Origin: an uncultured Clostridia bacterium
GTDB lineage: Bacteria; Bacillota; Clostridia; Christensenellales; UBA1242
NCBI GenBank assembly: GCA_930990515.1
Contig: CAKNPS010000001.1
Span: 295,280 to 359,279 of the forward strand
Direction: 5' to 3'
Length of the DNA: 64,000 bases
Part shown: piece after piece, positions 1,867-62,980 of the stretch
How positions within the stretch are numbered: position 1 is the first letter of the stretch
Layout: the number at the start of each line of letters is the position of its first letter
Position numbers and translations under genes: made by a program
Notes under the pieces: generated by a model
The model's input: only the letters and a program-made list of their open reading frames with translations
Database searches by the model: none
Told to the model about the DNA's origin: nothing

Positions 1867-1895
1867 TTGACAAATTACAACAATATTTTTATAAT
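1867..1895 (+). promoter_or_regulatory. Orphan consensus sigma-A-type promoter (TTGACA-17-TATAAT) facing the 3' end of the convergent S8 protease gene
   Basis: ttgaca 1867-1872, 17-nt spacer, tataat 1890-1895. There is no plus-strand ORF downstream. Confidence 0.35.
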
Positions 1896-52027: not shown

Positions 52028-53230
52028 TTATTCAATAATTGAAGAAACAACACCAGAACCAACTGTTCTTCCGCCTTCACGAATAGCGAAACGAAGTCCT
52101 TGTTCAATAGCGATTGGTGTAATAAGAGAGATAGTCATCTTAACATTATCACCAGGCATAACCATTTCAACGCCTTTTTCAAGTTCAATTGTTCCGGTAA
52201 CGTCTGTTGTTCTGAAATAGAATTGTGGTCTATAACCATTGAAGAATGGAGTATGTCGGCCACCTTCTTCTTTCTTCAATACATACACTTCAGCAGTGAA
52301 TTTTGTATGTGGATGAATTGAACCTGGTTTGCAGATAACTTGTCCTCTTTCAATTTCGTTTCTTTGGATACCACGAAGAAGAAGACCTACGTTATCTCCT
52401 GCACGACCTTCGTCAAGAAGTTTTCTGAACATTTCAACACCAGTAACAACTGTTTGTTTCTTTTGTCCCATACCAACGATTTCAACAACATCGTTAAGTT
52501 TAACAATACCTCTTTCGATTCTTCCTGTAGCAACTGTACCACGACCTGTGATTGTGAATACGTCTTCAACTGGCATTAAGAATGGTTTGTCAGTGTCACG
52601 AACTGGTTCAGGAATATAAGAATCAAGAGCATCAAGAAGTTCTTGAATGCATGCACATGCAGGATCATCAGCGTGACCAGCTTGAGCAGCTTCCAAAGCC
52701 TTAAGAGCAGAACCCTTAATAATTGGAGTTTTGTCTCCTGGGAAACCATATTCAGTTAAAAGTTCTCTGATTTCCATTTCAACAAGTTCAAGAAGTTCAG
52801 GATCGTCAACTTGATCTGTTTTGTTCATGAAAACAACGATATAAGGAACACCAACTTGTCTTGCAAGAAGAATGTGTTCTCTTGTTTGAGGCATAGGACC
52901 ATCTGTTGCAGCAACAACAAGGATAGCACCGTCCATTTGAGCAGCACCAGTAATCATATTCTTAACATAGTCAGCGTGTCCTGGACAGTCAACGTGAGCA
53001 TAGTGACGTTTTTCTGTTTGATATTCAACGTGAGCTGTGTTAATTGTGATACCTCTAGCTCTTTCTTCTGGAGCCTTATCAATTTCATCATATTTCATTT
53101 GTTGAGCCAAGCCCTTAGAAGCACAATACATTGTGATTGCAGCAGTAAGAGTTGTTTTACCATGGTCAACGTGTCCGATTGTACCAACATTTACGTGTGG
53201 TTTTGATCTATCAAATTTTTCTGTAGCCAT
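52028..53230 (-). CDS. tuf: Elongation factor Tu
   Basis: Start at [28 protein letters not shown] behind AAGGAG. 400 aa. Confidence 0.97.
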
Positions 53231-53418
53231 TTTAAAAATCTCCTTTTTTATTTCTACATACGATATCATATCATATTTTTTTAAAAAATCAAAACGATTT
53301 TAACAAATTTTTTGTGATTTTGTTACATTTTTTTGGTGGCGTTGCCACTTTTTATGATTTTGTTAATAAATAATAAACAAATTATTCATTTATTATCATT
53401 AAAATAGGCAAATTGCAC

Positions 53419-55506
53419 TTATTCAGCCTTTTTTCTTTGACCGATAATGCCTTCTGCAATATTCTTTGGAACTTCAGCATATTTCAAGAATTCCATTGTG
53501 AAAGTTCCACGACCTTGTGTTTGAGAACGAAGGTCAGTTGCATAACCAAACATTTCTCCAAGTGGAACTTCAGCATTAACAATTTGAACTCCTGGTCTTG
53601 TTTCATTTCCAGTTAAAATTCCACGACGAGAAGTGATGTTGCCCATAACTGTTCCAAGATAATCATCTGGCACTTCAACTTGAACTCTCATGATAGGTTC
53701 AAGAAGAACAGGGTCAGCTTTAGCACAACCATCTTTGAAAGCCATTGAGCCGGCAATCTTGAAGGCCATTTCAGAAGAGTCAACTTCATGATAAGAACCA
53801 TCAAGAAGAGTAACTTTATAGTCAACAACTTCGTAACCTGCTAAGATACCATTCTTTGCAGCTTCTTTGATTCCATTGAATACAGGTTGGATATATTCTT
53901 TTGGAATTGAGCCACCAACAGTTTTATCAACAAATCTTTCAGCATCTTCAAGATGTGTTCCTGCAGGAACTGGTTCAATGTCGATAACGCAGTGACCATA
54001 TTGCCCTTTACCACCACTTTGACGAACGAATTTGCCTTCAGCATGTGCTTTTCTCTTAATAGTTTCTTTATAAGCAACTTGAGGAGCGCCTACATTTGCT
54101 TCAACCTTAAATTCACGAAGAAGTCTATCAACAATAATTTCAAGGTGAAGTTCGCCCATACCAGCAATAATTGTTTGACCAGTTTCTTGGTCGGTGTATG
54201 TTTTGAAAGTTGGGTCTTCTTCTGCAAGTTTAACAAGTGCAAGCACCATTTTTTCTTGCATAAGTTTTGTTTTAGGTTCGATAGCAACACGAATAACAGG
54301 TTCTGGGAAGTCCATACTCTCTAAAACGATTGGATGTTTTTCATCGCAAAGTGTTTCACCTGTGATTGTGTCCTTAAGACCAACGATAGCAGCGATATCT
54401 CCTGCTCCAACTTCCTTGATTTCTTCTCTTTGGTTAGCGTGCATACGAATAAGTCTGCCCACTCTTTCCTTTTCGCCTTTGTTTGAGTTATAAACATAAC
54501 TTCCAGCAGTAAGTTTACCAGAGTAAACACGGAAGAAGGCAAGACGACCAACAAATGGGTCTGTCATAATTTTGAAAGCAAGTCCAGCAAATGGAGCATC
54601 TTCACTTGGCGCTCTTGTTTCTGTTTCACCAGTTTCAGGGTTAACACCTTCAATGTGGTCAATGTCAAGTGGAGATGGAAGATAATCAACCATTGCATCA
54701 AGAAGCATTTGAACACCTTTGTTCTTGTATGAAGAACCGCAAAGAACTGGAGTTAAAGCTCTTGAAATGGTGGCATTTCTTATTGCTTTTTTGAGTTCAT
54801 CAATAGAGATTTCTTCTCCGTCAAAATATTTTGTAAGAAGTTCATCATCAGTTTCCACAATTTTTTCCACGATTTCATCGTGAAGTTTTTGTGCTTTATC
54901 TTTGTAATCAGCAGGAATATCTGTAACATCGATAACAGTTCCAAGGTCATCTTCATAAACTTCAGCTTTCATTGTAAGAAGGTCGATAATTCCAGTGAAT
55001 GTATCTGCTTCTCCAATTGGTAATTGAATAGGAAGTGCTTTGGTTTTTAATCTTTCTTCGATAGAGTTAACACAACCAAAGAAATCGGCAGCATCTCTAT
55101 CCATTTTGTTTACATAAATAATAGTTGGTACTTTATATTTTTGAGATTGACGCCAAACAGTTTCAGTTTGAGGTTGAACTTTATCTCTCGCAGAGAGAAC
55201 AAGAACCGCACCGTCCAAAACTTTTAAAGAACGCTCAACTTCAACAGTAAAGTCAACGTGTCCTGGAGTGTCGATAATGTTGATTTTATGGTTTTTCCAA
55301 AAACAAGTTGTACAGGCAGAAGTAATTGTGATACCTCTTTCTTGTTCTTGAGCCATCCAGTCCATTGTCGCCTCGCCGTCGTGAACTTCACCGATTTTAT
55401 GACTTTTACCGGTATAGAACAAAATTCTTTCAGTGGTTGTTGTTTTACCAGCATCGATATGAGCCATAATACCAATGTTTCTAACCATTTTTAAATCGGT
55501 AGCCAT
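53419..55506 (-). CDS. fusA: Elongation factor G
   Basis: [13 protein letters not shown]1 motif. 695 aa. Confidence 0.97.
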
Positions 55507-55612
55507 ATTTTTCTCCTTAAATTAGATTTTGCATTAAAATTATTACACAAAGTAGATAATTTTAACAAATAAATTTACTAAATTTAGTAAGTATGATATT
55601 AACTTAATAAAT

Positions 55613-55783
55613 TTATTTAGAAATTCCATCATCTTTGGAATTTTCTTTAGGTAAGCCGTGTTTATTTCGATACATCGTCATTAAAATGTTTTTTCGTTTT
55701 TCTTCGTCACTTAGTTCAGTTTCGTTCGCCTTTTTAACACTTTGACGATAGGCTTCCATCATTCTTTTATCATATATAGTCAT
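55613..55783 (-). CDS. Unlisted small ORF (56 aa) between rpsG and fusA
   Basis: ATG 55783 lies 7 nt after the rpsG stop. MTIYDKRMMEAYRQSVKKANETELSDEEKRKNILMTMYRNKHGLPKENSKDDGISK*. No SD seen. Coding status is uncertain. Confidence 0.35.
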   Translation of the reverse strand: MTIYDKRMMEAYRQSVKKANETELSDEEKRKNILMTMYRNKHGLPKENSKDDGISK

Positions 55784-55789
55784 AGGCAA

Positions 55790-56263
55790 TTACCAATTGT
55801 AGTGAGCAAATGCTTTGTTTGCCTCTGCCATTCTATGCATTTCATCTCTCTTCTTAATTGAAGAGCCTGTATTGTTGTATGCATCAATAAGTTCACCTGC
55901 AAGTTTTGCGTCCATTGTTCTTTCTGCTGTTCTCTTTCTAGCATTGTTTACAATCCAACGGATAGCAAGAGTTTGGCGTCTTTCAGGACGAATTGGAATT
56001 GGCACTTGATATGTTGCCCCACCAACTCTACGACCTTTGGTCTCAAGTTGAGGTTTAACATTTTCGATTGCTGTTAAGCAAACATCTAATGGTTCAAGAC
56101 TTGTCTTTTCTTTAATAATATCAAATGCACCATAAACAATTCTTTGTGCAAGACCTTTCTTTCCGCTCATCATAACTTGGTTTACAAGTTTTGTTACAAC
56201 TTTGTTGTTGTAAATTGGATCAGGTAGAACATCTTTCTTAACCGCACATTTTCTTCTTGGCAT
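55790..56263 (-). CDS. rpsG: 30S ribosomal protein S7
   Basis: 157 aa, canonical S7 sequence ([16 protein letters not shown]..). Confidence 0.97.
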
Positions 56264-56302: not shown

Positions 56303-56677
56303 TTACTTCTTAGGTCTTTTTGCACCATATTTAGAACGGCTTTGTTTTCTGTTAGCAACGCCAGCAGTATCCAAAGTTCCTCTAACAATGTGATAACGCA
56401 CACCTGGAAGGTCCTTAACACGTCCGCCACGAACAAGCACAACGCTGTGTTCTTGAAGATTGTGTCCTACACCTGGGATGTAGCAAGTTCCTTCTTGACC
56501 ATTAGAAAGTTTTACTCTGGCAATTTTACGAAGAGCAGAGTTAGGCTTTTTAGGTGTTGCAGTTCTAACTGAAAGGCAAACACCACGTTTTTGTGGGCAT
56601 TCTTCAAGAAGAGGAGCCTTTTTCTTCTTTTCGAAAGTTTTACGACCTTTTCTAACTAATTGGTTAAATGTAGGCAT
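56303..56677 (-). CDS. rpsL: 30S ribosomal protein S12
   Basis: [29 protein letters not shown]. 124 aa. Confidence 0.97.
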
Positions 56678-56731
56678 TCTATTTCTCCTTTTTATAAGAT
56701 TTTCAGTTTTAAATCATGAATAGGATTTGTC

Positions 56732-56946
56732 AAAAAAAGACGCGAAATTTCGCGTCAAAAAATATGCTAAAGGTAAACACGAACAACACAATCGCGAAGT
56801 GCGACTTTGAAGCGAAACTTCAAATCGGTGGGGTTTGTAACCTTTCCTGCCGTTCAATTGAACTATGTTGAAACTTTCTTTCAACTTGCCACCTGTTGTT
56901 TGTTTATGCTTAAGACAGCATATGCTTCCGACAACGAAACACGCTT
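56732..56946 (-). ncRNA. Unclassified structured RNA (independent sRNA or str-operon leader/attenuator)
   Basis: Bounded by a perfect promoter (56949-56977) and the hairpin GACGCGAAATTTCGCGTC plus U7 (56756-56732). About 40% G+C by my count, clearly above the AT-rich spacers around it. Several nested helices can be drawn by hand. No SD-preceded ORF. Confidence 0.5.
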
Positions 56947-56948
56947 AT

Positions 56949-56977
56949 ATTATACATATTTCATCTTCCGCTGTCAA
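56949..56977 (-). promoter_or_regulatory. Perfect sigma-A-type promoter TTGACA-17-TATAAT for the structured RNA
   Basis: tgtcaa at 56972-56977 and attata at 56949-56954 on the plus strand. Confidence 0.65.
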
Positions 56978-57296
56978 GCATTTTGTAAAACATTTTTGTT
57001 AATTTGTCAAACATTTTAGAATATAAACTATGTGATGTTAAAATTTTATTAGCATAAAATTTTAATAAATTCTATCGAATTTGTGTGCTAACGCACACTC
57101 ATCACTTAGTATGTATAAACATCAGCCTCACCCTTGCAAGCAAGTTCGGCTTCCGATAATATAAATTAAATATATAAACTAAACAATAACTTAAACTTAA
57201 AAAACATTTGTTAGTCAATTATTTTCAAACTGATATAAAAATAACTAAAACAATTTATATAATTATTTTTTCTACTAGTTTCAAAGGCTACGAGCC

Positions 57297-57662
57297 TTAT
57301 TTTCTTTTTTTATTTGTCATTTTGTATATTACTCTGTCTAAGCCCACGCCAATTCCGCCTATATCCCACCTTCTTGATGCTGTAGGTATTTTATCTGATA
57401 ATTGTGGCGTTTTTACACTAAACTTTTTCCCACATTCTGGGCAGTTTGAATTGTTGCAAACATACATTGGTGCTCGTCCAGAGCCAACTAGTGCCAAAAT
57501 TGCAGATTCCAAAGTATAACCCACCGCCTGAATTATTGAAGCATCTAATTTAGGGGTTCTTTTTTCTGAGCCTTTCTCTTTACCCACCGCCATCATCTCC
57601 AATGACATAGGATCTCCGCATACTGGACATTTTGGGGCTGCTTTGTCTGATAATTCAACCAT
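57297..57662 (-). CDS. Hypothetical zinc-ribbon protein (two CxxC pairs)
   Basis: Strong SD (AAGGAG). CPVCGDPM and CNNSNCPECG are about 60 aa apart. Visibly more GC-rich than its neighbours. GGCTCGTAGCC hairpin right after the stop. Confidence 0.6.
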   Translation of the reverse strand: MVELSDKAAPKCPVCGDPMSLEMMAVGKEKGSEKRTPKLDASIIQAVGYTLESAILALVGSGRAPMYVCNNSNCPECGKKFSVKTPQLSDKIPTASRRWDIGGIGVGLDRVIYKMTNKKRK

Positions 57663-57787: not shown

Positions 57788-61868
<4,081 letters not shown>

Positions 61869-62897: not shown

Positions 62898-62980
62898 CCT
62901 TCTCACCACCTTTCATTTCTAAATTTCCCTAATATTATAATTATATTCACGAACTTTGTCAAGTATTATGATAAAATTTT

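Follow-up and report, generated by a model that had tools for sequence, protein, structure and literature searches.

A clade-confined structured leader RNA upstream of rpsL, with a probable terminator switch, in uncultured Clostridia

We analyzed a 64-kb stretch of DNA from an uncultured Clostridia bacterium, hereafter the window, in which the str operon lies on the minus strand. Its first gene, rpsL (56303-56677), encodes a 124 aa S12 protein (PF00164) and is preceded by the Shine-Dalgarno (SD) sequence AAAGGAG (56685-56691). The remaining operon (52028-56263) consists of rpsG (56263-55790), fusA (55506-53419) and a tuf ORF (53269-52028), and the order rpsL-rpsG-fusA-tuf is also called in relatives. 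The element described here is carried on the minus strand of the 619 nt spacer between a zinc-ribbon gene (57297-57662) and rpsL (56677-56303); all features of the element below lie on this strand. The zinc-ribbon gene, also on the minus strand, is located between ligA (57788-59740) and the leader promoter and encodes a 121 aa protein with two CxxC pairs, for which Pfam gave only sub-threshold zinc-ribbon matches. A 58 aa ORF (55613-55789, minus strand) begins right after the rpsG stop codon within the 283 nt AT-rich rpsG-fusA spacer and has no Pfam match above the cut-off. The length of this spacer ranges from 72 to 503 nt in relatives, and neither it nor the spacer upstream of the leader showed conservation when aligned to relatives.

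The original prediction, made from the sequence alone, had described a promoter, a terminator hairpin with a U7 tail and a segment of ~40% G+C between them, and all of these features are present. The promoter claimed at 56977-56949 is a sigma-70-type promoter of the leader and the str operon (TTGACA, 56977-56972; 17 nt spacer; TATAAT, 56954-56949) by both sequence and promoter scan, and is the sole 12/12 match in a 2.5-kb scan. Three perfect TTGACA-17-TATAAT matches were seen in the 64-kb window versus 0.03 expected. Another one (62934-62962, minus strand) is located ~25 nt upstream of rpsU (S21, 62909-62715), and the third (1867-1895, plus strand) lies within an intergenic spacer of extremely high AT content, where it points towards a subtilisin-like gene on the minus strand and has no plus-strand ORF downstream. 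Transcription is predicted to start at ~56942, which is the first base of the 5′-terminal hairpin P1. The intrinsic terminator (56732-56756, by sequence and scan) consists of GACGCGAAATTTCGCGTC at 56756-56739, forming 7 pairs of which 5 are G-C, and T7 at 56738-56732, that is, the RNA hairpin GACGCGAAAUUUCGCGUC plus U7. Given a start near 56942, the RNA would be ~211-213 nt long. The segment is indeed richer in G+C than its surroundings, with 40.4% (56732-56944), compared with 24% in each of the flanking spacers and an average of 31% for the window. The minimum free energy of the leader RNA is −67.7 kcal/mol (z = −4.6), and none of 200 shuffles folded as well. Upstream of the leader promoter, a G+C-richer patch (57083-57150, minus strand) contains the hairpin GTGTGC-GTTA-GCACAC (57098-57083); Rfam yielded no match to this patch, and no conservation of it was seen in relatives.

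The RNA had been left without a family, and no signature of RNase P, tmRNA, SRP RNA or a T-box had been recognized in it. Searches of Rfam 15 and ARAGORN agree. At the gathering score, the whole window contains only two tRNAs, both outside the element, and no family matched the element, including 6S, SRP RNA, RNase P RNA, tmRNA, T-box and the filed ribosomal protein and rpsL leaders. At E ≤ 10, the region yielded sub-threshold matches only, which were driven by the terminator and of which the best was TarB with 25 bits against 80 required, and five homologous loci yielded nothing at E ≤ 1. ARAGORN found neither a tRNA nor a tmRNA in the element. One of the folds described below, the antiterminator fold, is a long closed rod superficially like 6S RNA, but the fold that is conserved has branches and is linked to rpsL. 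In view of these nulls, there is next to no chance that the element is a diverged 6S, SRP RNA, tmRNA, RNase P RNA, T-box or filed ribosomal protein leader. A tRNA-like cloverleaf, suggested by the four-way junction of the element, found no ARAGORN support, and K-turn (L7Ae-type) and CsrA-type GGA sites were dropped by eye as the required GA and GGA nucleotides, respectively, are not conserved.

We next compared the regions upstream of rpsL in relatives, taking as close relatives those with an S12 identity of at least 87% (2 genome loci, 22 metagenome loci and 6/6 S12 protein look-ups). In every full-length close relative examined, rpsL is directly preceded by a homolog of the element, which is encoded on the same strand and follows the same consensus promoter. 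The genome scan with S12 retrieved L001 and L002 (94% S12 identity), both with the element upstream of rpsL, and contigs reached via S12 proteins of 87-96% identity contained it in 6/6 cases. In the metagenome scan, a pattern derived from two conserved blocks returned 22 loci, and the S12 start codon is located 180-360 nt downstream on the same strand in 22/22. Covariance models R1 and R2 detected a single copy at each locus, as in the window. The 22 pattern matches and all model matches are associated with this one operon, and the element is positioned, as a ribosomal protein leader would be, in the 5′UTR downstream of the operon promoter and on the same strand. The gene upstream of the element differs between loci (ligA, sigma factors or a giant Glug-domain protein), indicating that the element travels with rpsL. 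Homologs match the consensus promoter at 11-12 of 12 positions, and the −10 hexamer is located 11-16 nt from the P1 loop in full-length members; since the promoter lies at a fixed distance from this loop, the transcript is expected to start at the foot of P1. In the divergent L112 and L114, the promoter is 72 nt upstream of the P1 loop. In genomes whose S12 is 70-80% identical, R1 and R2 found no homolog at any of 78 rpsL loci. The family is narrow and restricted to a single clade of Clostridia that are uncultured and mostly gut-derived, whose source labels read 'Clostridia', 'Clostridiales' or 'Lachnospiraceae' bacterium.

The conserved core (56773-56945), delimited by the covariance models, consists of two 5′ hairpins, P1 and P2, followed by the long bulged helix P3 that closes a four-way junction with P4, P5 and P6. 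R1 and R2 match it with 92.9 and 97.2 bits, respectively, as the sole match in the window, and 23 of 24 distinct sequences adopt this architecture when folded singly. P1 (56922-56942) is a 7-bp 5′-terminal hairpin, GUGUUUC/GAAGCAU, with the loop GUUGUCG (56935-56929). Across the family it has 6-7 bp and a near-invariant loop; 6/6 modelled pairs change on both sides and 100% of the cells pair. P2 (56906-56921) is a local hairpin, AUGCU/AGCAU, of variable length (87% paired), whose 5′ strand can alternatively pair with a distal AGCAUAU. P3 is formed by AAACA-AACAACA (56894-56905) and UGUUGUU-CG-UGUUU (56775-56788), the latter reading UGUUGUU-CR-UGUUU in the family and containing a conserved 2 nt bulge (56781-56780). 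All 12 pairs of P3 are 100% paired and 8 of them never vary, so that the helix is almost invariant within the main clade; once the divergent L112 and L114 are included, 4 pairs change on both sides, with P3b AACAACA/UGUUGUU replaced by the compensatory UAGCACA/UGUGUUA. P4 (56827-56893) pairs GGUGG with CCACC, covaries at its base (G-C 16, A-U 9) and bears a lineage-specific insertion of ~55 nt with three small hairpins. P5 (56807-56823; UUGAAGU/GCUUCAA) and P6 (56790-56806; AGUCGC/GCGAUU) each change on both sides at 5/5 modelled pairs, with 98% of the cells paired. The invariant unpaired nucleotides are the P1 loop, GA after P4 and U.GUG after P6.

The insertion in P4 (56832-56888, minus strand), which spans ~55 nt and comprises two extra hairpins and GGUUACAAACC, is common to the window and L096, L101 and L105. 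These share the sequence CAGGAAA(A)GG(G)UYACAAACCYCACC, and the insertion may be an accessory subdomain. Several helices had already been drawn by hand. The long bulged stem (P3), GGUGG/CCACC (P4) and UUUGAAG/CUUCAAA (P5) proved to be real and conserved. GUUGAAA/UUUCAAC and GUUC/GAAC exist as well, but only as lineage-specific hairpins inside P4, and AUAUGCU/AGCAUAU exists but belongs to the antiterminator fold; in the conserved modular fold, AUGCU pairs locally with AGCAU (P2). P1 (56942-56922) and P6 (56806-56790) were absent from that list.

The architecture is supported by covariation. In alignment A2 (MAFFT, 16 sequences), 93.8% of the cells pair and 20/40 pairs change on both sides; none of 500 shuffles matched the observed level, and partners slid out of register pair at 38-50%. 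In alignment A4 (25 sequences), 96.9% of the cells pair and 24/40 pairs change on both sides (153 cells), while slid partners pair at 38-51%; the counts of A4 are biased in favor of the structure because this alignment was model-fitted. Each modelled pair in P1, P5 and P6 shows covariation. Judging from these comparisons, the structured RNA upstream of rpsL is real and conserved, and it has the covariation-supported fold expected of a ribosomal protein leader. The original prediction saw no credible gene in this gap, and we also reject a coding reading of the spacer, because core lengths of 123-213 nt lack a 3 nt periodicity and the substitutions preserve base pairs. Public gene calls include a 73 aa ORF over the leader in L081-L083 (2726-2947 and equivalents), and other calls (P0001, P0005) extend S12 N-terminally into the leader, giving 139 and 193 aa instead of 124. 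The 73 aa ORF and the extended S12 proteins look like annotation artefacts of an unrecognized RNA.

The original prediction left open whether the RNA is an sRNA of its own or a termination-type leader of the str operon. A hairpin and U-tract follow the core at the same place, with differing sequences, in 16 of 24 distinct leaders, and the window has the intrinsic terminator expected of a transcription attenuator between the promoter and the start codon (56756-56732). In contrast, about one third of the homologs are devoid of a U-tract terminator. L084-L089, L091, L108 and L111 retain the promoter and the core, which are followed by a small hairpin and then directly by AGACAAAUC and the SD sequence; L093, L099 and L109 have no canonical terminator, and none was seen by eye in L112-L114. 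Description of the RNA as delimited by promoter and terminator therefore suits only part of the family. In L001, L084 and L088, no plus-strand promoter-like site other than that of the leader itself was found before rpsL. Where the terminator is absent and there is no second promoter, the transcript must run into rpsL, which makes the RNA a 5′ leader. The comparative data agree with the leader option, while the sRNA option is disfavored by the terminator-less homologs, since an independent sRNA would conserve both its own promoter and its own terminator, of which the family conserves only the former. Taken together, the leader interpretation is well supported by the comparative sequence data.

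A weaker promoter ahead of the rpsL SD sequence had been claimed at 56733-56728. TTGACA is present at this position, but the scan called no promoter there. This TTGACA belongs to a motif, GACAAAUC, that most of the family conserves at the RNA level. The motif is retained in leaders that have AGACAA or CGACAA directly against the SD sequence, and also in members in which it cannot act as a −35 hexamer. The motif heads the 33 nt block GACAAAUCCUAUUCAUGAUUUAAAACUGAAAAU (56699-56731), the remainder of which is common to the window's subgroup. The block (56731-56699) may fold into a hairpin (AAAUC/GAUUU), act as a weak secondary promoter, or do both. The hairpin is lengthened by extra pairs in L081 and L104, and the promoter reading would be TTGACA-17-AAAACT, which was not called in the scan. 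A weak secondary promoter would not conflict with leader function. Pairing of GACAAAUC with GAUUUG in the junction was rejected, as GAUUUG is the variable 5′ strand of P5.

Is the RNA nevertheless an independent, ~212 nt trans-acting sRNA or protein sponge, with rpsL expressed from its own TTGACA promoter at 56733-56728? The strong promoter and the canonical terminator in the window would suit this explanation, as would the 33 nt block conserved after the terminator in the subgroup, with (A/T)TGACA, a 16-18 nt spacer and an A-rich −10-like hexamer, and the 40-150 nt insertions tolerated between the terminator and this block in L090, L095 and L096. However, several homologs lack the terminator, no second promoter-like site exists in L001, L084 and L088, and none was called at 56733. 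Moreover, GACAA in L001-type and L084-type leaders is too near the SD sequence to be the −35 hexamer of an mRNA bearing the ribosome binding site, the element invariably precedes rpsL immediately and shares its strand, and the conserved antiterminator described below would be purposeless in a free-standing sRNA. We thus regard an independent sRNA as quite unlikely.

Folding of the leader and calculation of duplex energies revealed that its 5′ end can pair with the terminator region. A pre-terminator segment, AGCAUAU followed by U6 (56757-56768), lies between the core and the terminator. In the antiterminator helix, ~56944-56916, that is, the first ~30 nt with P1 and the P2 5′ strand, pair with ~56769-56742, so that the distal partner comprises AGCAUAU-U6, the terminator 5′ arm and part of the terminator loop. 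The minimum-energy fold of the full-length RNA is the antiterminator at −67.4 kcal/mol, compared with −60.0 kcal/mol for the modular fold with P1, P2 and the terminator. When truncated transcripts were folded, they kept P1 and P2 until the terminator 5′ arm was present and then flipped to the antiterminator (−62.4 kcal/mol). The duplex between the 5′ and distal segments has −28.3 kcal/mol in the window, with z = −5.5 relative to dinucleotide shuffles, and ranges from −19 to −29 kcal/mol across 16 terminator-bearing variants. The 5′ arms of the terminators differ (GACGCGAAA, GGCACGAAA, GACACGGAAA and CGACAAC), yet all remain complementary to P1, CGACAAC being the exact complement of the P1 loop.

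The statistical support for this pairing depends on the lineage. In the window's subgroup, the mutually exclusive antiterminator expected of a transcription attenuator is the minimum-energy fold and has a duplex z of about −5; outside the subgroup, the duplex z is modest (−1.2 to −3.1), and strong statistical complementarity is thus seen only in the window's own subgroup. Because the terminators are stronger outside the subgroup, the terminator fold is there approximately equal in energy or favored. The 5′ partner is nearly invariant, and the two-sided covariation of the antiterminator therefore amounts to essentially one event, AUAUGCUU/AAGCAUAU versus AGUGCUU/AAGCAUU. The folding models show that two mutually exclusive folds exist and that the potential for both is conserved. 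In this genome, operon control through a terminator/antiterminator switch is most likely.

The P1 loop (UGUC) may form a pseudoknot with GACA(A), given 4-5 invariant pairs and one suggestive change, namely the loop GUUGCG with GCAAC in L112 and L114. The divergent leaders L112-L114 (~1150-1500) score 27 bits and have a 9-bp P1 with the loop GGUUGCGU, no P2 and ~55 nt of extra 5′ sequence. The 5′ arm of their tail hairpin, GCAAC, matches the changed loop, a hint at loop-tail pairing in these leaders.

In members without the terminator, complementarity to the 5′ segment is found in the tail and extends over the SD sequence and the start codon region, with a duplex of −25.8 kcal/mol in L084. Predicted pairing thus hints at translational control in these members, and in relatives with the same core but no terminator, the core would probably be coupled to translation initiation. 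Such pairing with the SD sequence would switch expression off, and its sign is opposite to that of the antiterminator. In L084 and L108, the P2 3′ strand AAGGCAU is complementary to the rpsL start AUGCCU(AC) and is paired with it in the minimum-energy fold, which might contribute to control at the level of translation.

On these grounds we think it likely, with fair confidence, that the element is the 5′ leader of the rpsL-rpsG-fusA-tuf mRNA, a clade-confined cis-regulatory RNA with a terminator switch and probable feedback by a ribosomal protein. The transcript would begin at the consensus promoter with the 5′-terminal hairpin P1. In one fold, P1 and P2 would form locally, and the downstream hairpin and U7 would terminate transcription before rpsL. 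In the other fold, the first ~30 nt would pair with AGCAUAU-U6 and the terminator 5′ arm, which would remove the terminator and let the polymerase enter rpsL. Read-through would presumably be the default state, and a factor that recognizes the conserved core, the P1 loop or both may keep P1 and P2 closed, so that the terminator forms and operon expression goes down. The likeliest factor would be a ribosomal protein encoded in the operon, S7 or, less likely, S12, resulting in feedback on the synthesis of ribosome components. By analogy with known leaders, S7 or S12 is our best guess for the putative effector. Both the restriction of the element to a single operon and the regular bulged helix that forms its most conserved part fit recognition by a protein better than binding of a metabolite.

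We know of no autoregulatory RNA for S12. A variant to which we give a modest chance is that the junction domain senses something other than S7, such as S12, an elongation factor or an alarmone, and is wired to termination here and to translation in sister lineages; the ~212 nt product might then also be a stable RNA with a role of its own. Somewhat less probable is a riboswitch of the same architecture and switch, in which the ligand of the four-way junction would be a small molecule, for example an alarmone or guanine nucleotide. The large junction-containing domain with its invariant unpaired P1 loop, GA after P4 and U.GUG after P6 would be compatible with a riboswitch, as would the combination of one sensor domain with different expression platforms, as found in riboswitch classes. 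However, riboswitch classes usually control several operons, while this element precedes one operon only, as is usual for ribosomal protein leaders. The strongest conservation is in the regular helix P3 (8/12 pairs invariant), a pattern more typical of protein recognition, and the gene context suggests no ligand beyond translation.

The leader might also be a structured 5′UTR without a sensor, which would act as an mRNA stabilizer, a processing site or a constitutive partial terminator tuned by general factors. In Firmicutes, 5′-terminal stem-loops stabilize mRNAs, and a hairpin at the 5′ end shields them from 5′ exonuclease; the predicted first nucleotide of the transcript is also that of P1, and the terminator is dispensable in part of the family. 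However, stabilization would need far less than six helices in a domain of 130-210 nt, invariant loop and junction nucleotides and a matched antiterminator, and we consider this explanation very unlikely.

Leader attenuators of rpsL were reportedly predicted early on by Merino and Yanofsky, and the Rfam entries rpsL_psuedo and rpsL_ricks are said to derive from the work of Naville and Gautheret. The latter authors described 'multiform' rpsL leader attenuators (Naville & Gautheret 2010, PMC2965389), which had no common structure and an unproven effector, with S7 suspected (PMC2965389). Like these attenuators, the present leader is immediately upstream of an rpsL that heads rpsL-rpsG-fusA-tuf, has an intrinsic terminator with a proposed alternative antiterminator, and has S7 as the suspected effector. 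Unlike them, it shows no similarity in sequence or structure (Rfam null even at E ≤ 10), has a greater size and contains a four-way junction and two 5′ hairpins, occurs in a different clade, and lacks any terminator in part of the family.

In E. coli, S7 autoregulates the str operon (PMC3616713, PMC10931766) through the translational operator of Saito and Nomura, which is located between rpsL and rpsG and acts via translational coupling (PMC3616713, PMC10931766). The operon is the same, as is the presumed feedback on S12, S7 and EF-G by a primary rRNA-binding protein. In contrast, the element in the window is located upstream of rpsL; the rpsL-rpsG spacer is only 39 nt instead of the extended intercistronic region of an E. 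coli-type operator, and the E. coli S7 determinants (UGUAA/UGAAU, CCA/UUGGA), compared by inspection, are not conserved in the leader. Ribosomal protein attenuators of Firmicutes include the L20 leader of Bacillus subtilis infC-rpmI-rplT and the L10 leader, in which the regulator is an rRNA-binding protein encoded downstream. The present leader resembles them in its length and in the pairing of the 5′ end with a distal segment that competes with an intrinsic terminator, whereas sequences and folds are unrelated, and its binding protein and rRNA mimicry are only putative.

Eckert & Weinberg 2020 listed 20 ribosomal leader candidates (PMC7247131), and among the entries of their Table 1 considered here, none is assigned to S12, S7 or the str operon. 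As in the leaders of that table, the structure here is a covarying, conserved and lineage-limited one in the 5′UTR of one ribosomal protein operon, and the family would add to this catalogue. The element would work like the rpsL attenuators known in other phyla, outside any filed family. Because the clade is uncultured and this kind of element is known, the advance is incremental. It corrects the annotation of spurious ORFs over the leader and of S12 proteins extended into it. Outside Gammaproteobacteria, how the synthesis of S12, S7, EF-G and EF-Tu is balanced is largely unstudied, according to a 2024 review (PMC10931766). With its covarying fold, explicit switch and variants with and without a terminator, the leader family is a practical substrate for S7 and S12 binding and termination assays.
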